Positions 1,317-28,503 of a stretch of DNA of 64,000 nucleotides are shown one piece after another. The stretch's first letter is position 1, and the number at the start of each line of letters is the position of its first letter. The stretch spans positions 9,788 through 73,787 of the IMG/VR virus record IMGVR_UViG_2974646641_000001; one strand, 5' to 3'. This DNA is from a virus (lineage: Duplodnaviria; Caudoviricetes). The notes beneath the pieces are model-generated. The model saw nothing but the letters and a program-made list of their open reading frames with translations, did not search any database and was not told where the DNA came from. The translations under genes and the position numbers were made by a program.

Positions 1317-1934
1317 ATGGCAAAAACCAAAGGTATTGACAGCGCTCGGCTTGCTATTTTTCAAACAGACAAGGAACAAGTTAATACGACAAACACAGCA
1401 ATTGGTACGACTGGTGTATACACGTTAGACTCAACTACCGCACAAGGTATGACGGTCGGCAATATTACTGGTCTTACTCCAACGATGACTAAGATTTACG
1501 GTTCTGACATGGTTGTTGAAACGTCTGGTAAAGGTGTTGGGTCTGTTCAAGCAACTGTTGGTGCTAACGATATTCCAGAAGACATCATTGACGCTATTAC
1601 TGGTGTTGACAATGAAAAAGGTTTCTCTGTTGTTACATCAGATACTCGTGCGCCATATTCAGTTATTGAATTTATCACCCACGGCCGTTTGAACAACAAA
1701 TTACACTTCGCCTTATTGAAAGGTACTTTCGGTCTGGAAGAACACAACATGCAAACGAACACCGAATCAGAACAATTGGCACCAGACTCATTGACGTTTA
1801 CTGGTGTTAACCGTCAATCTGATAAGGCCGCTTATGCTAAAGGTGACGAAGCTAAGGACACTTTCAAGATTGAAGATTGGACTAACTTCGTATTTCCGGG
1901 TAATGCTGTTGCGAGTAGCGGCTCCCACGCCTAA
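1317..1934 (+). CDS. major tail protein (phi13-like)
   Basis: 205 aa; KIYGSD, FALLKGTF, DSLTF motifs; AGAGG RBS; synteny. Confidence 0.85.
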   Translation: MAKTKGIDSARLAIFQTDKEQVNTTNTAIGTTGVYTLDSTTAQGMTVGNITGLTPTMTKIYGSDMVVETSGKGVGSVQATVGANDIPEDIIDAITGVDNEKGFSVVTSDTRAPYSVIEFITHGRLNNKLHFALLKGTFGLEEHNMQTNTESEQLAPDSLTFTGVNRQSDKAAYAKGDEAKDTFKIEDWTNFVFPGNAVASSGSHA

Positions 1935-1992
1935 ATTAGCTAAGGTTACTCCTAGTGTGAGTAATGTAACAATTGAAACTGAATAATCACCT

Positions 1993-2020
1993 ACATACCC
2001 CGTCTGGGGTGTGTGTACAT
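1993..2020 (+). promoter_or_regulatory. intergenic hairpin flanked by two TACAT sites
   Basis: catacccc-gtct-ggggtgtg stem-loop; TACAT at 1992-1996 and 2016-2020. Confidence 0.6.
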
Positions 2021-2061
2021 ATCCAAAAATAAAATATTAGATGAAAGACGAGGAGATTCAC

Positions 2062-2460
2062 ATGACTGTCAAAATCAATGCAAAAGACTTAGGTATTCGC
2101 AAGCCCGTCGAAGTAAACGAAACCAACAAAAATATCAAAAAGACGTTAAAGGTGCAAATGAAGTTGGAAGCGTTAGGTAACATTGACGCCGAAAACATGA
2201 CTGATGAGGAAGCTTATAGTGTGTTCTTGAAGAACCAGTACGAAGCTAACGAAGCAACCACCGAATATATTGCTGACATGTTGCGTTTATCAGAATCACA
2301 AATTGATAAACTAGAAGACTTGGATTCAGACAAGACCGATGAGTTGTTCGCTCAAATCATTCAAAAGGTTATGCACATTGACCAGATTGTGGACGGTGAC
2401 GAAGACGACAGTACGCCCAGCGGAACCGCAGACGTTTCAGGAAACGCTGGACGAGATTAA
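2062..2460 (+). CDS. tail assembly chaperone (gpG-like)
   Basis: acidic helical protein between MTP and TMP; GAGGAG RBS before ATG 2062. Confidence 0.75.
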   Translation: MTVKINAKDLGIRKPVEVNETNKNIKKTLKVQMKLEALGNIDAENMTDEEAYSVFLKNQYEANEATTEYIADMLRLSESQIDKLEDLDSDKTDELFAQIIQKVMHIDQIVDGDEDDSTPSGTADVSGNAGRD

Positions 2461-2638
2461 TCGTCTTGAAAAAGCATTAGTTGCTCAAAAGCAAGACACG
2501 TTCAACAACCTAGAGGAAACCAATTATTTTGATTTACTAGAAATGCTATCTGTTGATGATAACAGCGATGGTTCTAGTTCTGACGATGAGGTAGTTCCTT
2601 TGGGGTACTGGTTAGAAGATAACATTGCCGAGGGGTAA
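2417..2638 (+). CDS. tail assembly chaperone extension (gpT-like), probably reached by frameshift
   Basis: open +1 frame overlapping the gpG 3' end; no RBS-linked start; ETNYFDLLEML segment. Confidence 0.6.
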   Translation, partial: PAEPQTFQETLDEINRLEKALVAQKQDTFNNLEETNYFDLLEMLSVDDNSDGSSSDDEVVPLGYWLEDNIAEG

Positions 2639-2668
2639 TGTTATTGTTTTTACTTATTTTTGTTGGTT

Positions 2669-2695
2669 AAGTTCGCTTTGGCGGGCTTGTTTTTT
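2669..2695 (+). terminator. intrinsic terminator-like hairpin before tape measure gene
   Basis: aagttcgc-tttg-gcgggctt then gtttttt. Confidence 0.5.
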
Positions 2696-2712
2696 GCAAG
2701 GAGGGTTTTTAA

Positions 2713-5700
2713 ATGAAACAGGCCGCATATGGTAGCTTAACATATAATGTTAATATTAACGATACCAAGGCTCAATCAAGCCTGCGTACGTTAAAAGGAG
2801 CTATCCGCTCCACAGGCCACGAATGGCGCTCTAACGCTTCTGCAATGCAAGCCGCTGGTGACAGTGCAAGTGCTCTGGAAGCCAAGATAACAGGACTTAA
2901 TAAAGAAATTGAGCTACAATCTGATTACAACAAGCGTTTAGCTGACGCCTTAAAACATGCCAATGCTCAAACTGACAAGGAAAAACTTGCGGTTATGCGC
3001 TGGACGAACGAATTAACCCGAAGTAATGCGGCGTTGAAACGGCGTCAAAGCGAATTGGCAAGTGCGCGTGCCGCTGAAATCAGATTCTCAACTGGTATCG
3101 ACAAGGCTAAAACCTCACATAAAGCTTATACCAGTGCGATTGAGGCAAACGAAAAGGCTTTACTAGCAGAGGGCAAAGAGGAACAAGCAAGCGCTAAACA
3201 TAAACAACTATTGGCGGCCAAGACATCTGCTTTAAAAGATGAACTCGGTCGTGAGGAAAAGGCATTCAAGGCGTTAAAATCTAGTGCTAGTTCATCTAAT
3301 GTTGATATTAACAAACAGTCTGCCGTTGTATCAAAAGCTCGCGAAGCTTATGCTAGGGCCCGTGAGGAACAGCGTAAGTATTCTACCGGCTTGCACAAGA
3401 TGGAACAGTATTCTAAGTCAACTGCGGAAATATCACAGTCGCTTGCTTCAAGATTGCGAGCGGAGGGTAAGGGCTACTCTGCAATGGCGGTAGAATTGAA
3501 GTCATTAATTAGTTCTCGCAAGGGCCTAATGGCTCAATACAAGGCCGAAGCGTCTGAGTTGGCGTTAGTCAAAAAACGTTCCGGCGAAACAAGTGCGGCT
3601 TATTCAACGCAAGCTAAGAAGGTCAACGAACTAGGTGCGAAAATTGGGGCAACAGAATCAAAAATCCGTTCTTTAAACAAGCGTGTTGGCCTATCTGGTA
3701 CAGCGATAAATTCATTTAGCGACAAAATTGGTGGTATGCAGAAAAAATATTCTGGTGTTGCCACTGCGATGTCTGCTGTTTCTCGTGGTACTGGTTATGC
3801 AACCTTAGGGCTTGCCGCTGTGACCAAGCAAGGCGTTTCGATGGCAACCTCTCTACAATCTTCTTTTGTGAAGACTAAAAACTTAATTGTTAAGTCTAAT
3901 ACAGAAGGTACTGGCGAGATTAATCGTAACCTTGCAAAGATGAAATCAAATGCTCAATCATATTCTAAGGAGTATGGATTGACACAACAAAAGATTGCCG
4001 ATGGCTATCAAGACTTAATCAAGCGTGGTTATAGTTCAGCACAAGCGTTAGGTTCAATGAAGACATTAGTTAAAGGTGCTATCGCCACTGGTGATGACTT
4101 TAATGATGTCACAGCCGTTTCTACACAGACTTTGGAATCATTCGGTCTAAGAGCTAAATCTACCGCTCAAATGGCTAAGAATACGTCTAAGGTTGTTAAC
4201 GAGATGGCCTACGCCGCCGATATGACGGCTACCGATTTCCAAAGCTTGGGTAAAGGTATGGAATATGTCGGTAACACGGCCCATCAAGCAGGGTTTAGTA
4301 TCTCCGAAACTGCTAGTGCCATGGGTATTTTATCGAACAACGGTTTGGAATCTGACAAAGCTGGTACTGGACTACGTAAGACGATTAACTCATTGGTATC
4401 TCCTACTGATAACGCTACTGGCGCTTTGAAGAAATTAGGGTTATCAACAAGTAGTTTTACAGATAAGAATGGTAAGATGAAGTCGATGTCGGAAATCTTC
4501 GGCATTTTGAATCGTCACATGAAGGGCTTATCTGGTCACGACCGTACTGATGTATTCCACGCAATCTTTGGCACAACTGGTCAGCAAGCCGGTGGTATCT
4601 TAACCGATAATTATAAATCACTTGGAAAACTTAATGACGAGGTTGCTAGGTCTGCGAAGAACGATTATATTGGTGGTTTATCTGCAAAGAACATGGAAAC
4701 TGCGCAGAATCAGTTTAACAAGTTTAAGGTTACTTTTCAAGCTTTAGAGATTGAGTTTGCAAACGTATTACTTCCATATTTAACCAAAGGCGCTAAGGCG
4801 CTGACTGGATTAATGGATAAGTTTGATAAGCTAAGTCCTTCCGCTAAAAAAGCCGCCGGAGCAACGCTTCTATTAGTTCCAGCAATTAGTGCTGTTACTG
4901 GTGTAATCGCCGCTTTCATTCGGAACTCAGGGACAATCGCGACTGTTATTTCTAAGTTGTTTAGCACGTCTAAGGTTAAAACTGCCAGTTCAAGTAAATC
5001 CGCCATAGCCGCAATTAACGAACAAACGGCCGCTGTTAAAGCTCTTTCTGCGGCATGGGGAGAAGCTGGACGAGCCGCCGGAGCAGAAGCAGAGGAAGCC
5101 GGTGCCGGAGTTGGCGGCGGTTCTAAAGGAAAAGCTGGAAAGACAGCTTCCGAAGTGGAGTCAGTTGGCACTCGCGAAGAATATAAGGCGGCTAAGAAGT
5201 CTGGTTCCAAGACATCTATTCTGAAACGTATGGCCAAGGGACAGACAACCACAGAAGACGCCGAAGCCATCTCATCAAGAGTTGGCAAAATTGGCACTAC
5301 TGGTTCTAAGCTAGGGAAAATAGCTAGAGGCACTGGTAGTGTTCTTAAACGTGTTCCATGGTTACAAACTGGGTTAGCCGCCATGAATCTTATCGGTATC
5401 AACAAGAAGAACGCCGGCCAGAAGGTTGGTTCCACTGCTGGTCAATTAGGTGGTACAATTGGTGGCGGTGCTATTGGTACTGGCCTTGGGGGCCTAATCG
5501 GTGGTGGACTCGGAACTTTCTTTGGCCCAGCAGGAACAGTCGCTGGTGCTAAGATTGGTTCTACTGTTGGTGGACTTGCTGGTAGCTTATTTGGTGGTTC
5601 TAAGGGCCAAGATTGGGGTGGACAATTAGGTAAGAAGATTCAGAAGTCTTTAAAGAACTTCAAAATGCCTAAGATGTCAACCGTCACTAAGTCAATCGGT

Positions 5701-8376
5701 GATTGGTTTGGTGGTATTGGTAAGTGGATTAGTAAGCTAAAGCTACCAAGTATTAATTTTGGTAAAATGTTTAAAGGATTTAAACTTCCTAACATTGGGA
5801 AGATGTTTAAAAACTTCAAACTGCCTAAAATTAGTGGAATTGGTAAGTGGTTTAGCGGATTGTTCAAAGGGCTTAAAATGCCTAGTTTAAGTAGTCTTGG
5901 CAAATCAATCGGTTCAGCATTTAGTAAGATGTTCTCTGGTCTTGGCAAAACAGGTATCGGAAAATCAATCTCTAAAATGCTGGCCGGTGTTGGTAAAACC
6001 ATGTCAGGCTGGGCTAAGGGGATTGGTAAGTTCTTTGCCCCGGCTGTTAAGGCAATTCAAACACCTTTTAAGAAAATTGGTAAGTGGTTTAAGACCAGCC
6101 CAGTTGGTAAGTCAATTGTAACTATTGGTAAAGATATTGCCGGCGTAGTCAAGGGTATTGGTAAGTTTATTGCCGCCCTAGGAGCAATTGCCGGAAAGTT
6201 AGCCGCAATCGGTTTAGTCAAGTTATTTAAAGGAATTGGCAAGGCTCTTGGAGGCATGGGCAAAATCTTCTCTAAGGTCGGCAAGACAATTGGAAGATGG
6301 GCTAAGGGTGTTCGTAAGACCATTGACAATATGGTTAAACCAATTCAAAAAACGATGGGTAAAATCGGTAAAGGCATTTCTAAGGCATGGAGTGGCGCTT
6401 TAAAGACTGTCACAAAATTTGTTAAGAATATGTACCACACCGCCACTAAATGGATTGGAAAATTAGTAAGTCCACTGGCTAAAACTTGGCATTCCATCTC
6501 TAAAACTGCTGAAAAATGGTGGAAGAACATATCAGGAACTGTTGGTCGCTGGGTTCATAATCTCTACAAAACTGCCACTAAATGGATTGGAAGGCTGTTA
6601 AGTCCCGTAGCTAAGGCTTGGAAGTCAATTTCCAAAACTGCTGGTAGATGGTGGAAATCTATCTCCAATGCGATTGGTAGTTGGGCTCACAAAATCTACA
6701 AAAATGTGACTAAGTGGTTCAGAAACTTGCTGTCACCAGTTGCCAGAGCATGGAAAAATGTATCTAAAACCATCGGCGGCTGGATTAAGGGTATTTGGAA
6801 AAATATCTCTAAATTCGGTAACAATATGGCAAGCTTCTTTAAAAAGCTTCCGGGGCGGATTTCCGGCGCACTAAAAGGTGCATGGCATGGTATCTGGAAC
6901 GCAATGGCCGGAATTGTTAACAACGGTGTTATTCACCCTGTTGTTAAAGGTTGGAATGCCGTTGCCGGAGCCATTAACGGTGTCGAAAAGAAAATTGGTG
7001 TTGGCAAGAGCTTTAGACTTAGCACAGCTAGTTACGGTTCGGCTAAGCTAAGCACCTATGCCAATGGTACTCCGGGAGGGCCAGCGTTAGTAAATGACGC
7101 TAAGTCTAAATACTGGCGCGAAGCTTACAAGCTTCCAGATGGCCGCATGGGTATGTTCCCTAATAAGCGTAACATTATAGTTAACCTTCCAAAAGGAACT
7201 GAAATTGCCAAAGGTGAGGACGCTAGAATGGTTCAGCCTTACCTAGAACACACTGGTGGTAAAATCCCGGCCTTTGCTTCTGCTACTGGCTGGTTAGATG
7301 GTATCGGCAGTGCTATCGGCGGTGCTGTGCACGGTGTCGGTAATTGGTTCTCTGGAGTTGAAACTAAGGCTTCTAAGCTTATTGATAATTTAGGCAAGAT
7401 GATTAAGTCACCTGCTAAATATCTATCTGCTATGATTGCTTCACCATTAAACGCTTTAGCAAAAGGCGGTGGCATAGCCGCTAAAGCCGTTGGCATGACT
7501 GGTGACATTGTTGTCAACTCTCTTACTAGCTGGTTCAAAAAGATGTTAAAAGCAGGCCAAGATGAACAACTTGTCGGCAACGTCAAGCTTGGTGGTAGCG
7601 TTGCTTCACGTGCTCGTGCGTTAGCTAAAGCATTCAAGCAAGGTTATCCTGCTTCTAACAACGGTGGTATTGCCGGTATCTTAGGTAACTGGATTCAAGA
7701 ATCTAACTTGAACCCTTCCGCTGTCAACTCTAGTGACCATGGTACTGGTTTGGGGCAATGGACGTTCACTCGTGAAACTGGATTAAGAAATTGGTTACGT
7801 AAGCACGGTTACGCATGGAACTCCGCCGCTGGTCAAATTGGCTATGCCTTGAATGAACCCGGCGCAAACGGAATGCTAAAGGCTGTATTGAGAATGACAA
7901 ATCCTACTGCCGCGGCTCAAAAGTTCTTCGCAACTTGGGAGTCTGGCGGTAACATGGACGCTTCTGGTGGTGCTCGTTTGAGTAACGCTTCTGCTGTATA
8001 CCGCTACATTAAGGGTATGGAGAACGGTGGTCTTGTTGATAAAGCTCAAATGATTAACATTGCGGAACACAACAAACCAGAAATGGTTGTGTCTTTGACC
8101 AACAAAGACGCCGCAATTCGTCAATTGAAGCAATCAATTAGCTACCTTGAGAGTGGTAACACCGCCACTAACGTGAATACTCAAAATACGTCGTCTGCTG
8201 ATAGTCAAGCAATTGAACAAATTGCAACTGCTATCCAGCAAACTAACGCATTATTGCAAGCTATTCTGTCATCAAGCAATACCCCGAACGTCGCAGTTCT
8301 TGCTTCTCAAAGCGTTGTGGATTCAGTTAACAATGCTCGTCTTGCAAAAGATAGATACAACAAAATGTTGAATTAG
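2713..8376 (+). CDS. tape measure protein with C-terminal tail-lysozyme domain
   Basis: 1887 aa; TP901-type TMP core (AYAADMTATD, MGILSNNGLESDKAGT); Trp-periodic repeats; C-terminal ILGNWIQES...GLGQWT. Confidence 0.95.
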   Translation: MKQAAYGSLTYNVNINDTKAQSSLRTLKGAIRSTGHEWRSNASAMQAAGDSASALEAKITGLNKEIELQSDYNKRLADALKHANAQTDKEKLAVMRWTNELTRSNAALKRRQSELASARAAEIRFSTGIDKAKTSHKAYTSAIEANEKALLAEGKEEQASAKHKQLLAAKTSALKDELGREEKAFKALKSSASSSNVDINKQSAVVSKAREAYARAREEQRKYSTGLHKMEQYSKSTAEISQSLASRLRAEGKGYSAMAVELKSLISSRKGLMAQYKAEASELALVKKRSGETSAAYSTQAKKVNELGAKIGATESKIRSLNKRVGLSGTAINSFSDKIGGMQKKYSGVATAMSAVSRGTGYATLGLAAVTKQGVSMATSLQSSFVKTKNLIVKSNTEGTGEINRNLAKMKSNAQSYSKEYGLTQQKIADGYQDLIKRGYSSAQALGSMKTLVKGAIATGDDFNDVTAVSTQTLESFGLRAKSTAQMAKNTSKVVNEMAYAADMTATDFQSLGKGMEYVGNTAHQAGFSISETASAMGILSNNGLESDKAGTGLRKTINSLVSPTDNATGALKKLGLSTSSFTDKNGKMKSMSEIFGILNRHMKGLSGHDRTDVFHAIFGTTGQQAGGILTDNYKSLGKLNDEVARSAKNDYIGGLSAKNMETAQNQFNKFKVTFQALEIEFANVLLPYLTKGAKALTGLMDKFDKLSPSAKKAAGATLLLVPAISAVTGVIAAFIRNSGTIATVISKLFSTSKVKTASSSKSAIAAINEQTAAVKALSAAWGEAGRAAGAEAEEAGAGVGGGSKGKAGKTASEVESVGTREEYKAAKKSGSKTSILKRMAKGQTTTEDAEAISSRVGKIGTTGSKLGKIARGTGSVLKRVPWLQTGLAAMNLIGINKKNAGQKVGSTAGQLGGTIGGGAIGTGLGGLIGGGLGTFFGPAGTVAGAKIGSTVGGLAGSLFGGSKGQDWGGQLGKKIQKSLKNFKMPKMSTVTKSIGDWFGGIGKWISKLKLPSINFGKMFKGFKLPNIGKMFKNFKLPKISGIGKWFSGLFKGLKMPSLSSLGKSIGSAFSKMFSGLGKTGIGKSISKMLAGVGKTMSGWAKGIGKFFAPAVKAIQTPFKKIGKWFKTSPVGKSIVTIGKDIAGVVKGIGKFIAALGAIAGKLAAIGLVKLFKGIGKALGGMGKIFSKVGKTIGRWAKGVRKTIDNMVKPIQKTMGKIGKGISKAWSGALKTVTKFVKNMYHTATKWIGKLVSPLAKTWHSISKTAEKWWKNISGTVGRWVHNLYKTATKWIGRLLSPVAKAWKSISKTAGRWWKSISNAIGSWAHKIYKNVTKWFRNLLSPVARAWKNVSKTIGGWIKGIWKNISKFGNNMASFFKKLPGRISGALKGAWHGIWNAMAGIVNNGVIHPVVKGWNAVAGAINGVEKKIGVGKSFRLSTASYGSAKLSTYANGTPGGPALVNDAKSKYWREAYKLPDGRMGMFPNKRNIIVNLPKGTEIAKGEDARMVQPYLEHTGGKIPAFASATGWLDGIGSAIGGAVHGVGNWFSGVETKASKLIDNLGKMIKSPAKYLSAMIASPLNALAKGGGIAAKAVGMTGDIVVNSLTSWFKKMLKAGQDEQLVGNVKLGGSVASRARALAKAFKQGYPASNNGGIAGILGNWIQESNLNPSAVNSSDHGTGLGQWTFTRETGLRNWLRKHGYAWNSAAGQIGYALNEPGANGMLKAVLRMTNPTAAAQKFFATWESGGNMDASGGARLSNASAVYRYIKGMENGGLVDKAQMINIAEHNKPEMVVSLTNKDAAIRQLKQSISYLESGNTATNVNTQNTSSADSQAIEQIATAIQQTNALLQAILSSSNTPNVAVLASQSVVDSVNNARLAKDRYNKMLN
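6439..6834 (+). repeat. three 132-bp (44 aa) tandem repeats inside TMP
   Basis: TATKWIG...SP.AK.W..ISKT unit starting at 6439, 6571, 6703. Confidence 0.8.
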
Positions 8377-8380
8377 CACC

Positions 8381-8415
8381 ATATTTGGGGGCCACACCCC
8401 CAAATATACATACAT
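8381..8415 (+). promoter_or_regulatory. intergenic hairpin + TACATACAT
   Basis: perfect 11-bp stem atatttggggg/cccccaaatat, loop ccaca; TACAT at 8407 and 8411. Confidence 0.7.
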
Positions 8416-8437
8416 CATTAACATAGGAGGTAATATA

Positions 8438-10222
8438 ATGGCGTTAAAGAATGATGAATTCAGTATCGGTGGATTGAACAGCCGCTCCGACTTACATGTT
8501 ATTATGGGTATGGTGTTGCCACCGATTGCCCCAACAATGTCAGAGTTATCGACAGATATTCCCGCTAAATACGGTAACTATTTTGGCGGAATTGATTATA
8601 CATCAAAAACAATTAACATTCCAATTACGATAATGGCTCCACATAACTCACAATCATATATAGACTACGCGCAAACCTTGGCCGGGTTGTTATTAACAGA
8701 CAATCCAGACAACAACCAAGAATTACCATTGGTATTTGGTTTTCAACCAGATTTAACATATTGGGGGCACATCACTTCAATATCTGACCCGCAAGTGACA
8801 CAGGAAGGGTCTTGGGATTCGACATCAACTATCACATTCGTAATGTCTGACCCTAGAGCAACTATGCCACAGGTAGAAATGCCATTGAAAAACGGGTTAA
8901 ATGTTATAACCGTTGATGGAACTGCACAAACAGAACCAGTTATCCAAATTATTCCAAAAAGAGCGTTAAAATATGTTGGATATACTCTCAATGGCGGTAA
9001 CTATGGCGTCGGCCCAGAAGACCCAATTGACCAAGATAATGCCGTTCAAGAGTGGCAAAGTGTTATTGATGACCCCATTAACTCGATGGCTTTATGGAGT
9101 AATGGAGATGACGCATTATCACCAATAAAAACTGGGACTGCGCATGTTTTTCAAGGTAGTGCTACTATTAATGAAGACTCTGGCTCAATGATTGTTAAAA
9201 AAGTCAATGGCAAAAAGGATTATGGAACAATGCCATCTAGTTTGGCAGAAAATGATAATAAGTGGCTCGGCCCCGGCTATAAGTATAATGGTATGACTCA
9301 GTCTCTTTCGGAGTGGAGAATTAAAGCAGGAATTCATCATACTAAATGGCAAGGGGCACATCGTGGAAGGGCAATTGGTCAAATTCAACTATTATGGTTA
9401 AGCCCAAACGGAGAAACAATTGGCCATTTTGGAATTTCTGACCATGCTTATGGTGCTCGCCCAGAATGTTTTTTGCAGATTACACAGCCCGGTGGGAATT
9501 TTGACGTTGGAGATGGGACTCACAGGACTTTCTACTATGGTTATGGCCCCTCTGGGGCATTTAGCAATGATTCAGACCAATCAATTAAAATAAAAACAGG
9601 TACAAAAACAATCTCTAAGACAGTTTCCTCCCGTGCTAAGAACGGCAAAGTAACTAAGAAGACAATTAACGAAAAGGTAGATACCTACGTAACGGTTCAA
9701 AACAGGAGAGAGTACAGTGCGTTGTCCGACGCGTGGTTATTTTTAGATTTATCATATTATGATAATGAATATCACTATTCAATTACTCAACATAATTTAG
9801 CAAACGGTCAACCATATACAAATCCTAACAAGTATTTCATCGTCAGTTCTCAACAACCAGTAAAGACAGGCACGGCTTACGATACAGCATTAGGAGGTTT
9901 TGCGATATTCTTCGGAAAAAGACCAATCACGGAAGATGTTCAAAAAATAGACTATGATGAACCGTATATGTCGTTAACCCATTTGCAAGTATTTAAACAC
10001 AATAAGGTTGATAGTAAGGATACACCAACATATATTGCGAATGCAGGATCTGAAATTATTATGGATTCAGAAGCTCAAAGAACAACGGTTGATGGGAAAA
10101 TAGAATATCCTGTTTGGTCAACAAGTTATCCAAAACTAAAGCCGGGTGTTAACTCTCTTAATATTGTTGGAGATTTAGATGACGCAAAAATGGTTCTGAA
10201 ATATTTACCAAAAAAGCTTTAG
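8438..10222 (+). CDS. distal tail protein (Dit) with large internal insertion
   Basis: N-terminal FSIGGLNS...YFGGIDY; C-terminal YPKLKPGVNSL...YLPKKL; 594 aa. Confidence 0.8.
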   Translation: MALKNDEFSIGGLNSRSDLHVIMGMVLPPIAPTMSELSTDIPAKYGNYFGGIDYTSKTINIPITIMAPHNSQSYIDYAQTLAGLLLTDNPDNNQELPLVFGFQPDLTYWGHITSISDPQVTQEGSWDSTSTITFVMSDPRATMPQVEMPLKNGLNVITVDGTAQTEPVIQIIPKRALKYVGYTLNGGNYGVGPEDPIDQDNAVQEWQSVIDDPINSMALWSNGDDALSPIKTGTAHVFQGSATINEDSGSMIVKKVNGKKDYGTMPSSLAENDNKWLGPGYKYNGMTQSLSEWRIKAGIHHTKWQGAHRGRAIGQIQLLWLSPNGETIGHFGISDHAYGARPECFLQITQPGGNFDVGDGTHRTFYYGYGPSGAFSNDSDQSIKIKTGTKTISKTVSSRAKNGKVTKKTINEKVDTYVTVQNRREYSALSDAWLFLDLSYYDNEYHYSITQHNLANGQPYTNPNKYFIVSSQQPVKTGTAYDTALGGFAIFFGKRPITEDVQKIDYDEPYMSLTHLQVFKHNKVDSKDTPTYIANAGSEIIMDSEAQRTTVDGKIEYPVWSTSYPKLKPGVNSLNIVGDLDDAKMVLKYLPKKL

Positions 10223-10227
10223 ACGGA

Positions 10228-10256
10228 ACGATAGAGAACTCCTCTATCGTACATAC
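10228..10256 (+). promoter_or_regulatory. intergenic hairpin + TACATAC
   Basis: perfect 9-bp stem acgatagag/ctctatcgt, loop aactc; TACAT at 10250. Confidence 0.7.
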
Positions 10257-10275
10257 ACAAGAGGAGGTATTGTTA

Positions 10276-12654
10276 ATGGCGTTAAATAATCAATATTTAA
10301 TTCTCGATTCACATCTAAACAATATTGGTATTCTAACGGTTGATGGTGCGACTAAATTCACCAACGATTCTATATCTATGCAAATTGCTGATACAGACAA
10401 TACGAATACCCAGTATGATGATGATGTTAGCGTAGGAACTGATGACAATTATCGTACAGAAATAAATTCAAATTTTCAATCTAAACACTATGACCATAGT
10501 GGAACTGTAACCGTTCCACAGGGGCAACCAGATAGTGATAAGGTAGTGGCTGGAAATTATTTAGCATATTATGATAAATTTTTAGATAGATGGTATGTTA
10601 TGTATATATATACGACCGCAGAAGAATCGACATCTACAGCTTCTGTTAATACGGTCGCATATGTATGTAATATGATGTTAAGGGACTTAGCTTTTAGCAT
10701 TCCAGACGCGGCGACCGTTAAAAACGACACCATTCAAACAGTCTTTTCACACGTTTTCCAAAATTCTGGGTGGACGGTAGAATACAACACAGGTAACACA
10801 TCTATTCAAAACAGTGATTCTTTTGATGGCAAGACAAAAGCCACGGTACTGTTGCAAAGCATGTTGCAATTATTTGGAGTTGAAATTACTGCTTATGTAA
10901 AAATAAATAGCCAGGGGAAAATAACAGATAAGATAGCAGAAGTGACAGACGAACTATCTTCTGGGGTTATTTATGAAGAAGCAGTTTTTGGAAAAAATAT
11001 TACAAATATAAAAAGAACAACGGTTTCTGCACCTATCACAAAGTTATACGTATATGGCCCAAACGGAACTACAATGAAGTCTAGTAATGATGGTAAAGAT
11101 TATATTGTAGATGATAATGCAAACCAATTATATAACTATGAGGGTTCACAAGCAAGTAGTTATTTAGAAGGCGTTATCGTTTCCAATCAAATTGAGTCTG
11201 CTTCTGGTCTTAAATCTTGGGGACAGCAAATGTTAACCTTATTTAATCACCCAAGAACATTTTATGAAGTAAACGTCACCCCTGATTTTTTACCGCCATT
11301 AGGAACAACGATTAGATTTAAGGACAAATATATTTCTCCAGAATTAAATGCAACTGGTAGAGTTATCCAAAGAACTTTAAGCTTCTCAAATCCTAATAGC
11401 AATAGCATTGCTTTCGGTGAGTTTGTAACCGTTCCAGTAGCTACTCCTGCATGGTTAACAAATTATCAGTCCGCATTAGCAGACGCTGTTTCAAAAGCCA
11501 TAACAGACGCTTCTGCTATTACCCCAGTATTATCTCACCCAGATGGTCTTGATTTTGCTCAAGGTGAAACATCAAAACGTCTTATATTAAGTGCATGGGT
11601 TGGAAAGCAAAATATTAGCACATACGTTGATAGTAAAGGGTTCGCATGGCGACATATCAACACAGACGGCTCAATTGACCCAAATTGGGAGTCAACAGGC
11701 GACCTAATCAATGTAACTCCGTCTTTAATGGGTAATATCAGGGCATACATTGATGGTGATTATATATCGACAGACCCAGAGTTCCATATTGATAATCAAT
11801 CTTTCAAGCTGATTGGAAGCTTTGACCCGAGCGACAATCCAATAGGCCGTGTCGCACAACATATGGAACCGCTTGATGACGGTACTTGGTATCAGTCTTC
11901 TGCTCATGATAACGGGGTAGACACTAACTTTATTCTTAGAGACCGTAACCTGAATTACGTTTCAAGAATGGTTATTAAAATGGGAGGACACGGAACCTCT
12001 TTCGGAGTCAAGTATATCAATGGTTCTCCTTGGATAATTACTGCCATGAAAAACGACGTGAACGACTGGGATATTGTAAGGTTCCAATTCAAAGCAAATG
12101 CAACACTTGGGTACAATGATGTAGTTCATCTTTTTAATACTCATCATTATGCAAGGGTAAACTATGATAGAAAAAATGATTTGCTTGCCTATTGTGACGC
12201 CGCATTCAACTATCGTATTGTCAACATGGAGGACGCAGAACAGGGCATTCAGACAGTTGAATATTCTATCAATTGGCTAGATTACGATTTTACTGGAGAT
12301 GACCAAATTGTTCAAGGCCAAACTCTTGACTTTCCATACGTTTATTGGAATGTCGGAAACCAAGGGCTGAAAGTGTCAACTGAATTATATTGTGTAAACG
12401 CTATTCATAAAGGGGAAGTATTTCATGTCTATTACGACCCAGAGGAACAGCTCGGAATAACTAATAAGGTTATTGAACCAGAAGGGTTAGGTTTTCACAA
12501 TTTTGGTGATGGTTATAAGCTGGTTCATTCATTTAATGTTACTCCAGATGGGAACCCACCAAAACGTCAGATGATTTACACATCTGATTTCGTTTACCGT
12601 GAAGAAATGCCGGTTGTCAATGGCGGCAATGATAGTAATGACAAAGACGAGTAG
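10276..12654 (+). CDS. Tal/baseplate hub with C-terminal beta-propeller-like receptor-binding region
   Basis: after Dit; YGKNI..I.R..ITKLY.YG hub pattern (FGKNITNIKR); C-terminal GGHGT motif. Confidence 0.75.
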   Translation: MALNNQYLILDSHLNNIGILTVDGATKFTNDSISMQIADTDNTNTQYDDDVSVGTDDNYRTEINSNFQSKHYDHSGTVTVPQGQPDSDKVVAGNYLAYYDKFLDRWYVMYIYTTAEESTSTASVNTVAYVCNMMLRDLAFSIPDAATVKNDTIQTVFSHVFQNSGWTVEYNTGNTSIQNSDSFDGKTKATVLLQSMLQLFGVEITAYVKINSQGKITDKIAEVTDELSSGVIYEEAVFGKNITNIKRTTVSAPITKLYVYGPNGTTMKSSNDGKDYIVDDNANQLYNYEGSQASSYLEGVIVSNQIESASGLKSWGQQMLTLFNHPRTFYEVNVTPDFLPPLGTTIRFKDKYISPELNATGRVIQRTLSFSNPNSNSIAFGEFVTVPVATPAWLTNYQSALADAVSKAITDASAITPVLSHPDGLDFAQGETSKRLILSAWVGKQNISTYVDSKGFAWRHINTDGSIDPNWESTGDLINVTPSLMGNIRAYIDGDYISTDPEFHIDNQSFKLIGSFDPSDNPIGRVAQHMEPLDDGTWYQSSAHDNGVDTNFILRDRNLNYVSRMVIKMGGHGTSFGVKYINGSPWIITAMKNDVNDWDIVRFQFKANATLGYNDVVHLFNTHHYARVNYDRKNDLLAYCDAAFNYRIVNMEDAEQGIQTVEYSINWLDYDFTGDDQIVQGQTLDFPYVYWNVGNQGLKVSTELYCVNAIHKGEVFHVYYDPEEQLGITNKVIEPEGLGFHNFGDGYKLVHSFNVTPDGNPPKRQMIYTSDFVYREEMPVVNGGNDSNDKDE

Positions 12655-12665
12655 GAGGTTATAGA

Positions 12666-15600: not shown

Positions 15601-16085
15601 ACGCTGTTGATGGAAATGCCCAAATGTACCTTTTAAATGATGGTTCGCCAGCGGTTGCGTCACCGACAGTTTATAACCGAACGTATTCTAACGGTGCAAA
15701 TGTGTTTGTCACCTCATATGGTCGTATCGGTAGGTCAACCTCGGCAAGTAAGTACAAACTAGCTATCGCCAGAAGCGATGATACATTGCAAGCTGACCGT
15801 TTAATGACTCTAAAACCAGCAAGCTGGAATGACAAAGTAGCTACGGAAAAAATGGCTGAATCATTGTCAAATGGTGAAATACCAGTAGAAGCAGAAATAA
15901 ATCTAAGACGACATTACGGCTTAATTGCCGAGGATTTACGAGACGCTGGACTAGATGAGTTCTTAATCACTGGTAAAGATGGTCAAATTGAAGGTATTGA
16001 ATACGACCGTTTATGGACGGTACTAATTCCTAAAATTAAACAGCTAAATAATAGAATTAACGAACTTGAAAGGAAGACCCTATAA
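12666..16085 (+). CDS. tail fibre/host-specificity protein with CBM-like domains and C-terminal S74 chaperone
   Basis: coiled-coil N-terminus; NLIPYSSNF..W and NLVYNAS CBM-like starts; SASKYK...HYGLIAEDL...IEYDRL. Confidence 0.85.
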   Translation: MARSAFVEVNITNPTKLAQDSQDTANNAVKGVTDLNDPNLMSVIEKQNNVVQFAGLTSQYNVLVQNAKDEGIDTTAVTTAYNNLNKFMADVLADPDHASDVDRVTYKKYQDAYNEELAKLQNALQNNANNKFDSAASATSQAASTASQAASQAQSAVDYTNGQIASQASAVSEASKNASEASSKANSALDAASGANAEITKLKGGSTLTIAELEDGLGTKVSNDTFTTYQTQTASQFAETVKEADFTTYQTQTSKLIESKVDNGTYQTDKTQTAKDIASKVSSSDFETYQTQTDGMIASKVSKKDANNVNLIPYSSNFSDSLEGWQLMAWGATDRKLLVTTHSFYKNGTGKLLYLNTAQNATSAAGSLRFSVLPNTKYTFQFKAFASSNVVGANVYFLSRAYGSTSDYDTAHGLFNNLVTSPSHIDQYTVTFTTGANDNEGYIRVDNIGSNNGASSGLFFTELKMEPGDTATNYIYGGQDSMISQMSNDIILRVTKDGLIDQINIQAGNTLISSSGQLTLSGKSVFLDSVDPVIMKSANIDTLLVGKKLTAADIAANTFTTNNGTFTVDKNGLVTATSLIIRGSTNLVYNASLSGGNGSYIPGWNMNGEGYYSNAVLYDGVPALVWAGTTASGVWDNYATTYYQPVTQTGIPYSASGTFRDYGSASGMMFQCTLAFFTDKATASRINGYKAFNYTATGGDSGSIYFTIDNVVAPSNAKYVALQFWAYNGKGHAAWSQPMLTQTAKATGYQPDTGNIISAGTVIGTNISASIISGTTIHAGDIINSTNNTANFYPLTIDSNGFIQSYHIDDNFANSAKLYTGNLVISNRNMSANAGSNNFAGETAVLGGSSLTLSSGYTVGKDTDFTKTLISEGQPGTTKLTLSGITGITLKGDDQKIHFHGMYSDSQPKGITFTPYGNINGDEGRTTGNWYVGYNLANMTAQFGIDNLNKNTIEFYRPTFVDEIGAMGNRLDNGRLLLHAVDGNAQMYLLNDGSPAVASPTVYNRTYSNGANVFVTSYGRIGRSTSASKYKLAIARSDDTLQADRLMTLKPASWNDKVATEKMAESLSNGEIPVEAEINLRRHYGLIAEDLRDAGLDEFLITGKDGQIEGIEYDRLWTVLIPKIKQLNNRINELERKTL

Positions 16086-16327
16086 TGGAAAACATTAATA
16101 TTACAACTGTATCAGTTCAGCCGGATAGTGTTTTTAAAATCAACTTTTCGGCAACGTATGAATCATCGTCACATATCGAGGGCTTTGTTCTTATGAAAGC
16201 AGAAGATTATCGTTCTAAGACAGGTGACGAACAAGTAGCATTCATTAAGCAAACTATTGCAGATAATTTGGCTGGCAAGATTACACCAGTATCTCAATTA
16301 GCTACTAACGATTCTAATAAGATTTAA
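16085..16327 (+). CDS. hypothetical tail-associated protein
   Basis: 80 aa; TAATG coupling to the fibre gene. Confidence 0.6.
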   Translation: MENINITTVSVQPDSVFKINFSATYESSSHIEGFVLMKAEDYRSKTGDEQVAFIKQTIADNLAGKITPVSQLATNDSNKI

Positions 16328-16344
16328 TATGGAGGATTTAAATT

Positions 16345-16767
16345 ATGAAATTTGAATTACAAAACCAATTTGTTGCACCATCAATTGAATTTCTAAAGAG
16401 GTTGTCACTTGCTGGCTACCAATCAATTGCTCGGACACGCTTAATTAAAATGTTATCTGATAAAAATGATGAAATTGTTGGTCTTCAAAAAGACCTAATT
16501 AAAGAATACGCCGATAAAGACGATAAAGGTGAATTGATTGTCAAAGACGGTCAATACAGCTTTACACCTGAAAATGATGTAGCTTTCAGAAAAGCGTATT
16601 TTGAATTAATGATGGAAAATGGCGAAATTGAAAAGGCCACCTATTCACACCACAAAGAAGACTGTCAAGACTTCTTATTAAATGCAGACATTAATGTATC
16701 TGGCGATGAAGCAACGTGTTATGACGCGTTATGTATTGCATTAGATGTTGATTTCGATAAGCGATAG
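16345..16767 (+). CDS. DUF1617-like tail module protein
   Basis: L..L.L.G.QSIARTRLIK pattern; GGAGG RBS. Confidence 0.6.
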   Translation: MKFELQNQFVAPSIEFLKRLSLAGYQSIARTRLIKMLSDKNDEIVGLQKDLIKEYADKDDKGELIVKDGQYSFTPENDVAFRKAYFELMMENGEIEKATYSHHKEDCQDFLLNADINVSGDEATCYDALCIALDVDFDKR

Positions 16768-16783
16768 AAAGGAATGATTTAGT

Positions 16784-17896
16784 TTGGCAAAGACATTAGA
16801 ATATGCCGACACTTCTGCTCAAACCGTAAAAATTGGCGATACGACTACCAGTTTCACAATGGTATTGGGCGAAGATAGCAACCCCATTGACCTTACTAAC
16901 GCAACAAGCATTATTGCCAAGATAGGTAATAGCACCGGCTACCTAAAAGAGCAAACAGTCACTTCTGATAATATCCCAGACCCTTTGTCTGGTCAAGTAA
17001 TTATTAAATTTGATTCTGAATTTATGAATGGACTTCCAGCGGGTTCTTACTTGTTAGAAGTTTGGGTGACTTATGATAGCGGAGTTGCTATCTATCCTAG
17101 TGGTGCTTTAACAGGATTTACAATTAATAATAACATTGAAGCTAGTGGTGGTTCAACCATCACAACTATCACATTCGATGATTTCGTAGATAAGTTTAAT
17201 GAAATCGCGGCAAACGCACTACCGGGGACAACTGACACTACTAACTTTCAGAAACGAAAAATTACGAACGATGATGGTAGTTTTTATTTAAGCATTCCTA
17301 ATGCAACTGGCGTTGATGTGACGGATAAATTACTTTCTTTGCCAAGTGGTTTATACACCTGCTATATTCAGGTCGGTGCAAAGAATAACCCAAGCAATGA
17401 TTCGCTAAGAGGAATTGTTTGGGTTTCTGCTGGTTATGGGGGTGGCATTTTTGGCACAAACACTACTGGTGGGTATACATCGTATAGACTATTTATAGAA
17501 GGCTCATCTTTACAGTGGAAAAAATACCCCGCTCAAACGTCTGGTACTTTAGATGTTGAGCCGGCATTTTATATGACTGGTACAACAAGTAGTGAAAAAG
17601 CCTTGAACTATGTGCTAACTGGAAATGTATTGCACGTCAGTGGTATTGTTGTCCCAAGTTCTGAAATAGCGGCAGGAGGTACTGCTGTATTATTCAACTT
17701 ACCATCTTCAATTGGTACCATAAGCGAATACAGAACCGCTGTACAGCAAAGCTCTAGCTATAACTTGTATTGTTTGAATTGGAAGCCAAATGGCCCCGTT
17801 TCAGTGATTAAACATAATACTGCTGGAACCGCAACAGCTATCACAACATCAACAGAATTGCAGGTATGCGTTGATATTGTTATTAACCCTAGTTAG
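16784..17896 (+). CDS. BppU-like baseplate/receptor-binding protein
   Basis: N-terminal VKIGDTTTSF...IDLT...YLLEVWV...IYPS; beta-rich C-terminus. Confidence 0.7.
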   Translation: MAKTLEYADTSAQTVKIGDTTTSFTMVLGEDSNPIDLTNATSIIAKIGNSTGYLKEQTVTSDNIPDPLSGQVIIKFDSEFMNGLPAGSYLLEVWVTYDSGVAIYPSGALTGFTINNNIEASGGSTITTITFDDFVDKFNEIAANALPGTTDTTNFQKRKITNDDGSFYLSIPNATGVDVTDKLLSLPSGLYTCYIQVGAKNNPSNDSLRGIVWVSAGYGGGIFGTNTTGGYTSYRLFIEGSSLQWKKYPAQTSGTLDVEPAFYMTGTTSSEKALNYVLTGNVLHVSGIVVPSSEIAAGGTAVLFNLPSSIGTISEYRTAVQQSSSYNLYCLNWKPNGPVSVIKHNTAGTATAITTSTELQVCVDIVINPS

Positions 17897-17968
17897 CAAT
17901 AAAATTCAAATTTTACTCTGAAAAAATTATCAAGAAGTAAACATTAACACACAAAAGGAGACATAAAG

Positions 17969-19360
17969 ATGAATAAACGACTAAAACACGTACTATACGG
18001 TACTGCATTGGCATTATCGTTAGGATTATCTGCTTCTGCTATTAATACGCAGAATGCCAGTGCCGCTAACACCAGTGATGGTGCCGTTGTTAAAAAAGTT
18101 GTTGACATTTCAGAATGGCAAGGCAACGTTTCTTATCAGAAGGCTTTAGCTTTAAAATCTGAAACCTCATTTGTAATTGTCCGTGTTCAATACGGTTCTA
18201 ATTACAAGGATATTCAGTATAAGAACACGATTGCTAACCTCGAAAAAGCTGGGACGCCATACGGTGTTTATTCTTATTCGCGGTATGTAAATGCTTCTGA
18301 CGCTAAGCAAGAAGCCAAAGACCTTTATAATCGTGCTAAGAATGCTAAGTTCTTCGTTAATGACGCAGAAGAAGTTACTACGACTAGTGGTTCTTATTCT
18401 AGTGCTGTTAAGGCTTGGGGTTCTGAAATGCAAAGCTTAACCAACAAGCCAGTTATCCTATATTCTGGTAGCTATTTCTACAACAATTATATTGGAACTA
18501 TGAGCAACTATGACGCTTTTTGGGAAGCTAACTATAGTAACCATTATCTCAAAGACCCAGCATTATGGCAGTACACGGATTCTGGTTACTCAACTAGTCT
18601 TGGTTTAGGTGTTGATACCAACAAGGTTATCACATCTAAACACCCTGTAAAGTGGTGGATTGGTTCCAGTGCCGCTGACAAGCAAAACGTAGACAAGTAT
18701 CATGTTGGTGGATTCAAGGTTGGTGACAAAGTTAAGATTAACTCTAACGTTGCTAAATGGGACGATGGCGATACTAAGACCCCAATTGATAGTTCCGTAT
18801 TGAAGAAGACTTACACTGTTGGTCAAATCAAGCAAGTAACGGAAGGCAAATCTAACCAAATGCTCTTACTAAAGAGCGGTAACACCGTTGTTGGTTGGAC
18901 GTTAGCTGAACATGTTACGAAGCAAGGTTCTAGTTCGAATTCCAGCTCATCTAACAGCAACAAAGCTTCTAACCAAACCTATAACCAAAACGGGACATTC
19001 TACCCAAACACCACTCTTAATGTTCGTACTGGAGCTGGCACCAACTACTCCAAGGTAGCCACTTATTACAGTGGTGAAAGCGTTAAGTATAACCAAGTAA
19101 TCATTAAATCTGATTATGTCTGGGCTAGATATTTACGCTCTAACGGTTATTACGGGTATATTGCTCTAGGTGTAAATGGTGGTGAAAGCTACGGTAAGCG
19201 TATTGTCGGTGCTTCTCATACCTATTATACAGTTAAATCTGGTGATAGTCTATGGAAGATTGCCAACGACCACGGAACTACTATTAGCAATTTAACTAGC
19301 CTTAATGGTATCTCGATGTATAGCACTATCTATCCAAACCAACGACTAATTATTAGCTGA
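17969..19360 (+). CDS. signal-peptide endolysin: GH25 muramidase + SH3-like + LysM
   Basis: N-terminal signal ending ASA; VVDISEWQG, DAEE, LWQYT; TTLNVRTGAG SH3b; YTVKSGDSLWKIA LysM. Confidence 0.9.
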   Translation: MNKRLKHVLYGTALALSLGLSASAINTQNASAANTSDGAVVKKVVDISEWQGNVSYQKALALKSETSFVIVRVQYGSNYKDIQYKNTIANLEKAGTPYGVYSYSRYVNASDAKQEAKDLYNRAKNAKFFVNDAEEVTTTSGSYSSAVKAWGSEMQSLTNKPVILYSGSYFYNNYIGTMSNYDAFWEANYSNHYLKDPALWQYTDSGYSTSLGLGVDTNKVITSKHPVKWWIGSSAADKQNVDKYHVGGFKVGDKVKINSNVAKWDDGDTKTPIDSSVLKKTYTVGQIKQVTEGKSNQMLLLKSGNTVVGWTLAEHVTKQGSSSNSSSSNSNKASNQTYNQNGTFYPNTTLNVRTGAGTNYSKVATYYSGESVKYNQVIIKSDYVWARYLRSNGYYGYIALGVNGGESYGKRIVGASHTYYTVKSGDSLWKIANDHGTTISNLTSLNGISMYSTIYPNQRLIIS

Positions 19361-19377
19361 TAAGGGAGGTTCACCAC

Positions 19378-19707
19378 ATGGTATTAAGTAACATTATTGC
19401 CGCCGTTCCACCTCATTATTTCTTTGGATATAATCTTAGTGAATGGACGGAACTGATTGCCATTGTGAGTGCTTTTTTATCACTAGTTTCTTGGTTGTTC
19501 AAACGAGTTATTATTGACCCGTTGATGGAAAAGATTAGTGACTTAGGTGATAGTATTAAGCAATTGTCTGCTACGCAGAATGAAGATTCTAACACATTTA
19601 TGCAAACGCTAGAGAAGCACACCGAAGAACTTGGAGAAGTTAAGATTACGATGGCAAGGCACGACGAAGAATTAAGGTCTCTCTGGAAGGGGAAGAATAG
19701 AACATGA
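19378..19707 (+). CDS. holin-like/XhlA-like membrane protein
   Basis: one TM helix then coiled coil; directly after endolysin. Confidence 0.55.
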   Translation: MVLSNIIAAVPPHYFFGYNLSEWTELIAIVSAFLSLVSWLFKRVIIDPLMEKISDLGDSIKQLSATQNEDSNTFMQTLEKHTEELGEVKITMARHDEELRSLWKGKNRT

Positions 19708-20300
19708 ACAAAATTAAAACTGCATTTAACAACTTTATTTCTCAATTCGTAAAAACATTTGAAACTAACAAGACTAAGCCTAGCTACTGGTTACAAATTA
19801 TCGGTTCTGTTTTAATCATCGGATTAGCTGTTGGTTCAGCATTCTTTGGTCTAAAGATTGACCGTAGTGATGTCCTTATGGTATTTACGGTTATTGGTTC
19901 AGTGCTTGCGTTCGTAGGTACTGTAACGGATAATTCTATCCTTGAAAATGTTGGTAACGGTATTAAAAACGATTCTGATAGTTTAACGAGTAGTGAACAA
20001 GACGTTCTCAACAAACTTGTCGAAGCTCAAAAGGCGATTGAAAATGCAAAGACACCAACTGAGCAAGCACAATTAGCATTAAGTGCCGCTAATGAAGCTC
20101 AATCTGTTGCAGATAGCTTAGCAAATAAACTATCTAAAGAAGCCGTTTCAGACGCAGTCGTTAGTACGCAGGAAGTAGCACAGGTCGTAACCAGTGAATC
20201 AACAAGTGTCGCAGAGCCAGCTAGTGCTGTATCAGAAGTACCAGTAAGCGAAGCTACGTCAGAAGCTCCTACTAGCGAAACTCCTACTAGCGAAGCTTAG
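19704..20300 (+). CDS. holin with long acidic Ser/Thr/Glu tail
   Basis: two TM helices; ATGA overlap; lysis cassette position. Confidence 0.7.
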   Translation: MNKIKTAFNNFISQFVKTFETNKTKPSYWLQIIGSVLIIGLAVGSAFFGLKIDRSDVLMVFTVIGSVLAFVGTVTDNSILENVGNGIKNDSDSLTSSEQDVLNKLVEAQKAIENAKTPTEQAQLALSAANEAQSVADSLANKLSKEAVSDAVVSTQEVAQVVTSESTSVAEPASAVSEVPVSEATSEAPTSETPTSEA

Positions 20301-20306
20301 TATTAA

Positions 20307-20332
20307 TCCTCACAGTTATGTGAGGGTACATA
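20307..20332 (+). promoter_or_regulatory. intergenic hairpin + TACATA
   Basis: tcctcaca-gtta-tgtgaggg stem-loop; TACAT at 20327. Confidence 0.65.
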
Positions 20333-20361
20333 AAATACAAAAAAAGGAATGGTGAGATACA

Positions 20362-21605: not shown

Positions 21606-21638
21606 AAAAAGGGCACCCGAAATTGGGTGTCCTTTTTT
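21606..21638. terminator. bidirectional intrinsic terminator between convergent blocks
   Basis: aaaaa-gggcaccc-gaaatt-gggtgtcc-tttttt. Confidence 0.85.
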
Positions 21639-25497: not shown

Positions 25498-25518
25498 TTT
25501 ATTATCTTTCCTCTCGTA

Positions 25519-26163: not shown

Positions 26164-26233
26164 TGTTGTTTCCTCCTTTTTTCGATATTATTATAGTACC
26201 ACACTCTGTTAAGTTTTGCAACCCTATAAACGC

Positions 26234-26262
26234 AAAAAACAGCCACCTTTTATAGTGGCTGT
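26234..26262 (-). terminator. intrinsic terminator
   Basis: acagccac/gtggctgt stem with A-run giving a U-tract on the minus strand. Confidence 0.7.
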
Positions 26263-26266
26263 AATT

Positions 26267-28419: not shown

Positions 28420-28474
28420 TTCTATCATCTCCTTGCAATTATAATACCACATTCTAGTCAAGATGTCAATAATA

Positions 28475-28503
28475 AAAAAAGAGGTGCATTACACACCTCT
28501 TTT
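28475..28503. terminator. intrinsic terminator
   Basis: gaggtg/cacctc stem flanked by A and T runs. Confidence 0.75.

Follow-up and report, generated by a model that had tools for sequence, protein, structure and literature searches.

We analyzed a window of 64 kb (64,000 nucleotides; positions 9,788 to 73,787 of IMG/VR record IMGVR_UViG_2974646641_000001) from the 73.8-kb genome of a virulent siphovirus, a phage of Lactobacillus plantarum, and found that junctions between its late genes carry a composite element, a strong stem-loop directly followed by the hexamer TACATA (UACAUA in the transcript). These elements are a real, conserved and strand-specific class, and a chance origin of the site pattern is excluded. 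The hexamer equals the word reported to be cut by MazF/EndoA-type endoribonucleases, and the phage carries a mazF gene. We consider it reasonably probable that the late RNA undergoes programmed cleavage at hairpin+UACAUA by an enzyme of this type, most likely the phage's own orphan MazF. Seven relatives from the subfamily Tybeckvirinae, the L. plantarum phages Maenad, Satyr, ATCC 8014-B2, Gut-P1, Nyseid, Lenus and SA-C12, were used for comparison; their nucleotide identity to the studied phage is 78-93% in the matched parts of the late region.

The late operon occupies positions 1-21600 of the plus strand and runs from the head-tail connectors through the lysis genes to a tyrosine recombinase. 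Genes are directed leftward at 21637-40820 and rightward from 41886 on. Four spacers of the late operon contain the element:

1992-2015, plus strand: stem-loop 1, in the spacer between the major tail protein (MTP) and tail-chaperone genes; 10 bp, loop GUCU; -16.0 kcal/mol, z -3.4 versus shuffled sequences
2016-2021, plus strand: TACATA 1, putative cut U^ACAUA; 47 nucleotides (nt) before the ATG at 2063; Shine-Dalgarno sequence (SD) GAGGAG at 2050-2055
8381-8407, plus strand: stem-loop 2, in the spacer between the tape-measure protein (TMP) and Dit genes; 11 bp; -16.3 kcal/mol, z -4.6
8407-8412, plus strand: TACATA 2, overlapping the stem by its first T (the final paired base); 31 nt before the ATG at 8438
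10228-10250, plus strand: stem-loop 3, in the Dit/Tal spacer; 9 bp; -12.3 kcal/mol, z -4.1
10250-10255, plus strand: TACATA 3; 26 nt before the ATG at 10276; SD GAGGAGG
20306-20327, plus strand: stem-loop 4, in the spacer between the holin-like and tyrosine recombinase genes; 9 bp; -13.2 kcal/mol, z -4.0
20327-20332, plus strand: TACATA 4; 35 nt before the ATG at 20362

The initial annotation had described these spacers as containing strong stem-loops of unrelated sequence and without a U-tract, each followed by the pentamer TACAT. The description of the stem-loops was confirmed (-12.3 to -16.3 kcal/mol, z -3.4 to -4.6). None of the four hairpins was revealed by a scan for intrinsic terminators, and no T-run or U-tract follows any of them. 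TACAT is indeed present after each stem (at 2016, 8407, 10250 and 20327), but the relevant unit is the hexamer TACATA, which begins 0-1 nt after the stem in all four spacers. The proposed doubling of TACAT at 8407/8411 did not survive comparison, as the sequence at 8411 is TACATC and has no conserved counterpart in the relatives. A second copy was also correctly noticed on the other side of stem 1 (1992), but it is incidental, being part of the base-paired 5' arm and replaced by TACATG in Maenad and Satyr. The hairpins begin 4-5 nt past the stop codon of the preceding reading frame and the motif lies 26-47 nt before the next start codon; in agreement with the annotation, a cut would spare the SD at all four sites.

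The only long late spacer without TACATA, that between the chaperone and TMP genes, contains a possible weak variant site:

2618-2656, plus strand: 12-bp hairpin at 2618-2645, GTTTT, then TACTTA at 2651-2656

This combination of a hairpin and TACTTA may be a weaker version of the hairpin+TACATA element.

It should be mentioned that T-run terminators do occur elsewhere in the genome. For example, a strong bidirectional intrinsic terminator with a 14-bp stem and T-runs on both sides is located at 21606-21637, at the convergent junction of the late operon and the gene for a DnaE-type polymerase.

The reading frame upstream of hairpin 1 is itself unusual. The hairpin starts 5 nt after the stop codon of an open reading frame (ORF) at 1804-1986 (plus strand, +1 frame), which overlaps the MTP gene (1317-1934) and continues beyond the MTP stop. 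Maenad, Satyr, 8014-B2 and Gut-P1 show conservation, at the protein level, of the last ~20 residues encoded by this ORF (a Pro-rich linker followed by ..TPSVSNVTIETE), which suggests that the ORF may extend the major tail protein through programmed frameshifting.

We analyzed the distribution of TACATA in the whole 73.8-kb genome. The sense strand contains 15 copies, none of them in coding sequences (CDS), where 9.0-10.3 copies are expected from shuffling of synonymous codons (none of 300 shuffles gave a count as low; the lone CDS hit reported by the ORF caller was due to an over-extended start, and the observed count was taken as 0). The antisense strand also contains 15 copies, but all 15 are inside genes and none follows a strong hairpin. 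Ten of the sense copies are located 0-1 nt after a strong hairpin: those of the four late spacers, five in the head-gene region immediately upstream of the window, and one at 52008 (plus strand). An eleventh hairpin-adjacent site at 31613 (minus strand) is in the sense orientation for the leftward genes; with it, and with a weak site at genome position 3172 set aside, there are ten strong sites. Thus, the four sites noted in the initial annotation are all real but belong to a larger set. The remaining sense copies lie in the tRNA region or in the 5' arm of stem 1.

The tRNA region is an island at genome positions 2100-3200 (-7700 to -6600 relative to the window) comprising tRNA-Pro, tRNA-Gly and tRNA-like remnants not called by ARAGORN, interspersed with TACATA. 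One of these hexamers ends 2 nt before the 5' end of tRNA-Pro, and another follows an end reading ..CCGACCCCA.

The hexamer TACATA, and not the pentamer TACAT, is the conserved unit. Depletion of the pentamer was considered and rejected: a dinucleotide shuffle gave 112 observed versus 183 expected copies, but an order-3 Markov model gave z = -0.8. TACATT, TACATC and TACATG together account for 46 sense copies. In total, 18 single-substitution variants of TACATA were included in the depletion profile. Among them, UACUUA is strongly depleted in the sense strand of CDS (6 observed versus 19.3 expected, ratio 0.31) and UACAUC weakly (7 versus 12.7, ratio 0.55, p = 0.06). TACGTA (4 versus 14.5, ratio 0.28) is a palindrome that resembles a restriction-type site, and TAAATA (16 versus 27.1, ratio 0.59) has no link to MazF.

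Hairpin+TACATA elements were found at the same junctions in all seven relatives, with unrelated stem sequences and an invariant hexamer. The shared junctions follow the small ORF that precedes HNH/terS, terS, the capsid gene (major capsid protein), the next gene, and the MTP, TMP, Dit and holin-like genes. There are about ten elements in the studied genome, and each relative has from 9 to 15 in its late region. Across the late regions of all eight phages, to which the following comparisons refer, sense TACATA is found 96 times between genes versus five times in CDS, and antisense TACATA five times between genes versus 55 times in CDS. The 35 nt upstream fold with -8 kcal/mol or lower at 80% of the 101 sense sites, versus 9% of random positions and 8% of antisense sites (Mann-Whitney p = 4e-34), and the gap between hairpin and TACATA is 0-3 nt at most sites. 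When 75 unique sites were aligned on the hexamer from -50 to +30, information was found only at TACATA (1.6-2.5 bits per position), together with a mild preference for G at -1 (42 of 84 hairpin sites).

The stems themselves have diverged. The 5' arms at the TMP/Dit junction differ among the phages (ATATTTGGGGG, ACGAGGGG, ATACGAGGG, ATGGGGG and TATGGGGGAA), the Dit/Tal stems are replaced in the relatives, and the orthologous MTP/chaperone stems are different in 8014-B2, Gut-P1 and the Lenusvirus phages. Only the MTP/chaperone junction could be aligned, the stems at the remaining junctions being too divergent. In that alignment 98% of the cells pair when the structure is given by hand; RNAalifold returned no structure owing to the placement of gaps.

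The hexamer was derived from the genome before it was compared with published MazF specificities. EndoA of Bacillus subtilis cuts U/ACAU only when it is followed by A (Taggart et al., PMC11780869), and the MazF enzymes of B. subtilis, Listeria and Staphylococcus aureus all prefer UACAUA (bioRxiv 10.64898/2026.08.06.743204). The identification of the motif as a MazF/EndoA site in the initial annotation thus proved apt: the strict published site U^ACAUA equals the hexamer kept between genes and purged within them. In addition, the depletion profile matches the off-target sites of MazF, since S. aureus MazF also acts weakly on UACUUA and UACAUC (bioRxiv 10.64898/2026.08.06.743204).

The candidate enzyme is encoded in the leftward region:

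31071-31433, minus strand: mazF, predicted EndoA-like PemK/MazF endoribonuclease, 120 amino acids (aa)
31467-31495, minus strand: mazF promoter, consensus sigma-A type, TTGACA-17-TATAAT

The mazF gene has a good SD and is kept in all seven relatives. Its product matches PF02452 (PemK_toxin; E 3.1e-22, profile positions 1-107 of 109) and phrog_1936, "MazF-like growth inhibitor" (E 1e-38), and shares about 40% identity with S. aureus MazF and B. subtilis EndoA. Among 20 homologues Arg33-Pro34 is invariant and Thr56 nearly invariant; in the alignment these residues correspond to the RP and T of S. aureus MazF. PMC8634880, citing Simanshu 2013, gives R25 (followed by Pro26) and T48 as the catalytic residues of B. 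subtilis MazF, and states that its beta1-beta2 loop, which carries G18 and E20, contacts the RNA.

No ORF of at least 50 aa lies between the promoter and mazF, and no MazE-like neighbour was found, in line with the initial annotation of an EndoA-like MazF without an antitoxin. Two uncharacterised ORFs on the same strand, 30745-31074 (phrog_14545) and 30219-30752 (phrog_5083), show translational coupling with mazF via ATGA and ATGATTAA overlaps. The first of them, directly downstream and ATGA-coupled to mazF, has no Pfam match. It was rejected as an antitoxin: its predicted fold (predicted local distance difference test score 79) is weakly RNase H-like (Foldseek match 4h8k, E 5e-4, TM score ~0.5) and not MazE- or antitoxin-like. 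In SA-C12 a lysozyme gene comes directly after mazF. An unrelated or distant inhibitor of the phage MazF may exist.

Taken together, these data are consistent with the following scheme. The functional element would consist of a stable stem-loop, free in sequence, and UACAUA 0-3 nt downstream of it. MazF, expressed from its strong early promoter, would cut the long late transcript at U^ACAUA. The upstream piece would then end in the hairpin with a tail of 1-2 nt and a cyclic phosphate, a poor entry point for 3' exonucleases, and the downstream piece would start with 5'-OH ACAUA and retain its SD. Because UACAUA is purged from all CDS, phage messages would be cut only at the junctions, and unprotected cell RNAs would stay exposed. 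Differential stability of late mRNA segments is plausible, as such hairpins close segments with, among others, the capsid, major tail, tape-measure and Dit genes; subunit stoichiometry could conceivably be set by the cleavage. We infer the occurrence of cleavage, the cutting enzyme and the effect on stability and protein ratios from genome comparison. The predicted U^ACAUA specificity of the phage MazF has indirect support in that its own genome purges and positions this word.

Two of the hairpin-adjacent sites are located outside the late operon and have a different organization:

51979-52013, plus strand: early site; TTGACA abuts the hairpin at 51986-52006, whose 3' arm gives the -10 sequence TGgTACGCT; TACATA at 52008-52013, at about +1
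31608-31645, minus strand: early site upstream of mazF; TTGACA at 31645-31640, hairpin at 31640-31615 with the -10 box TATGCT, TACATA at 31613-31608

Both overlap sigma-A type promoters, and the architecture of the 52008 site is the same in Maenad. In total, five early sites of this kind were revealed (31613, 52008 and three in Maenad, Satyr and 8014-B2): the hairpin adjoins TTGAC(A/T), its 3' arm forms the -10 box, and TACATA lies between the -10 box and about +1. A primary transcript from such a promoter would therefore not carry the complete word. A read-through transcript would be cleaved almost exactly where the promoter itself initiates, which would fit an insulating role.

Several observations weigh against cleavage by the phage enzyme. 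The specificity of the phage MazF can only be inferred, because it is no more than ~40% identical to the characterised enzymes and its beta1-beta2 loop, which holds the equivalents of G18 and E20, is three residues longer than that of B. subtilis MazF. At three of the four late sites the stem is closed by the U of the motif, an arrangement that might hinder a single-strand-specific enzyme. Covariation at the MTP/chaperone junction is weak: two pairs show double changes, a result matched by 56 of 500 shuffles, with few sequences compared. Moreover, phages of the same host purge the word without a mazF gene. Counts of sense TACATA in CDS are 0 versus 3.9 expected in 8014-B1, 0 versus 5.2 in phiJL-1 (where the whole sense strand contains none), and 3 versus 7.9 in the temperate phage Sha1, and no MazF homologue was found in these three phages. 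Sha1 also has a terminator-like hairpin, T-run and TACATA before terS and at the TMP/Dit and Dit/Tal junctions; its TACATA sites at 4203, 19004 and 20848-20852 occupy the same tail-gene junctions as in Tybeckvirinae. The cutting activity therefore need not be that of the studied phage, and the presence of mazF, with which the motif had been expected to covary, lost its value as a pointer to the phage enzyme. The original proposal that MazF processes the late mRNA is thus partly supported, by the conserved strand-specific elements, the matching word and the intact mazF gene, and it is weakened as regards the phage enzyme by the phages that lack mazF and purge the word too.

These phages lead to an alternative that we regard as rather unlikely, namely that the sites are of MazF type but the cutter is a host UACAUA-specific RNase or the MazF of competing phages, against which the genes have been purged in defence. 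The junction sites would then be kept to exploit or sense the activity, or as harmless, and the phage mazF would have another role, such as host shutoff or phage exclusion. Besides the three MazF-less phages, including the Sha1 junction hairpins, this explanation can refer to the MazEF pair of L. plantarum WCFS1, whose cleavage specificity is uncharacterised; NdoA-type MazF has been reported to be absent from the genus Lactobacillus (bioRxiv 10.64898/2026.08.06.743204). In the searches made, however, the phage MazF had no close homologue of cellular origin: after the phage clade the best matches are at most 49% identical, and a search of genome contigs gave four homologues in metagenome-assembled genomes with 38-45% identity. 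In a search of plasmids for MazF, L. plantarum was neither among the genera named nor among the 25 matches listed of 170. Furthermore, pure defence leaves unexplained why an invariant hexamer persists at the junctions amid drifting surroundings. The Lactococcus phage sk1, used as a control, shows no purge (5 observed versus 7.2 expected); this validates the null model and links the effect to the host. A second lineage presents the same picture as the studied phage, in favour of the main reading: in Bacchae, a MazF-encoding L. plantarum myovirus of 141 kb, the 39.5-kb structural module contains 3 sense TACATA, all after hairpins, versus 18 antisense, and CDS counts (1601-41100) are 2 observed versus 14.7 expected. 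Since the purge is found in phages with and without mazF and not in sk1, a UACAUA-reading activity appears to be a constant for L. plantarum phages. Retention of mazF in two unrelated virulent lineages of this host, Tybeckvirinae and Bacchae, speaks against the alternative, and phage-borne MazF itself could therefore be the selective agent. By extension, an orphan MazF with a dual purpose, which degrades host and competitor-phage RNA at UACAUA, matures the late RNA and trims early read-through, might also drive the purge in MazF-less phages; the 5' ends of processed and primary early mRNAs would then almost coincide. We regard this extended role as possible but doubtful.

It is very improbable that TACATA acts at the DNA level as a late-promoter or initiator box for host RNA polymerase and a phage factor, with the hairpins as insulating terminators, even though strong sigma-A promoters are missing from the late region (at best 10 of 12 matches, versus many at 11-12 of 12 in the early regions) and most SDs have the motif 0-50 nt upstream. 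The architecture of the five early sites is the best evidence for this reading, at these few sites. At the late sites the promoter alternative, which the initial annotation had named as the main one, is weak, because TACATA alone is conserved between -50 and +30, with no -35 or extended -10 element, and because the hexamer abuts GGAGG in 8 of 84 hairpin sites (about one in ten), where RNA would start inside or past the SD. Promoter scans of the four late sites gave a single weak sigma-A match (9 of 12, at 20309-20336). The hairpins are without U-tracts, none of the large ORFs was recognized as a phage RNA polymerase, and the annotations of the relatives list no sigma factor. An N4-like phage RNA polymerase using hairpin promoters was considered and rejected, the only very large non-structural ORF encoding the DnaE-type DNA polymerase. 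Since phiJL-1 has no sense TACATA at all, the hexamer is not a general late promoter in phages of this host, and a random hexamer would coincide with the MazF site by chance only once in 4096. The least probable explanation is another reader of hairpin+UACAUA: an RNA-binding protein that regulates translation or antitermination, or an endoribonuclease of another kind, for example RNase Y with some local preference. The tight spatial coupling of hairpin and hexamer would suit such a reader, and G at -1 recalls the G preference reported for RNase Y, but the RNase Y consensus is weak in B. subtilis (PMC11780869). Such a factor would also have to mimic both the word and the off-target profile of MazF. 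The purge of UACAUA extends over genes throughout, with or without a hairpin, and therefore fits a reader of sequence only, such as MazF.

It should be mentioned that the purge in Bacchae is broader, with TACATC at 0 versus 12.6 expected and TACATT at 10 versus 24. This hints that the Bacchae MazF, or an agent acting on Bacchae, may have a looser requirement for the sixth base.

Cleavage by the phage MazF at these sites would combine features of known systems. EndoA/MazF of B. subtilis, Listeria and S. aureus share with it the identical 6-nt word, a matching avoidance profile and the PemK fold with Arg-Pro and Thr. The phage protein differs in being only ~40% identical, in its longer loop, in having no MazE partner and in belonging to a virulent phage (its activity being predicted), and the phage sites form hairpin-capped junctions instead of scattered regulatory targets. 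In phage T7, host RNase III makes intergenic cuts inside hairpins of early and late mRNAs, leaving a stabilising 3' stem-loop and translatable downstream genes. The cuts proposed here would likewise be intergenic, in polycistronic phage RNA, and leave a 3' stem-loop, but RNase III is a double-strand-specific host enzyme, whereas here a single-strand, sequence-specific RNase of a toxin family would act beside the hairpin in a genome purged of the word elsewhere. RegB of T4 is a phage-encoded RNase that recognizes GGAG in intergenic regions and destroys the SDs of early genes for shutoff. It resembles the proposed system as a sequence-specific phage RNase acting on short intergenic motifs of phage mRNA and differs from it in protein family; here the SD would be spared and a hairpin left upstream. 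The life cycle of the arbitrium phages phi3T and SPbeta is also tied to a UACAUA-specific MazF, but there binding proteins modulate the host MazEF, and neither a MazF of their own nor hairpin-capped junction sites have been reported. The literature searched contained no description of hairpin+UACAUA phage junctions or of a phage-borne processing MazF. Phage mRNA processing (T7 RNase III sites, T4 RegB) and MazF as a precision RNase are known kinds, to which the proposed processing would belong.

If the proposed processing takes place, an RNase of toxin-antitoxin origin has been domesticated by virulent phages for mRNA maturation and possibly host shutoff, and genome-wide recoding renders the phage immune to its own nuclease. 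Hairpin+UACAUA would then be a portable rule for splitting operon transcripts into stable units, linking the 6-nt precision of Gram-positive MazF to phage biology, and avoidance of MazF sites in phage genomes could mark exposure to the RNase. This would be relevant to phages of dairy and vegetable fermentations and to the design of insulated synthetic operons.

Finally, the window and the whole genome show strong avoidance of restriction sites on both strands. GATC is absent everywhere (0 copies), as is GGATG/CATCC (0), and GATGC/GCATC and GCAGC/GCTGC occur 1/0 times each. CCTGG/CCAGG (0/1), GGACC (0), CTGAAG (2), TTCGAA (2) and ATCGAT (0) are also avoided, the expectation being tens of copies for each.

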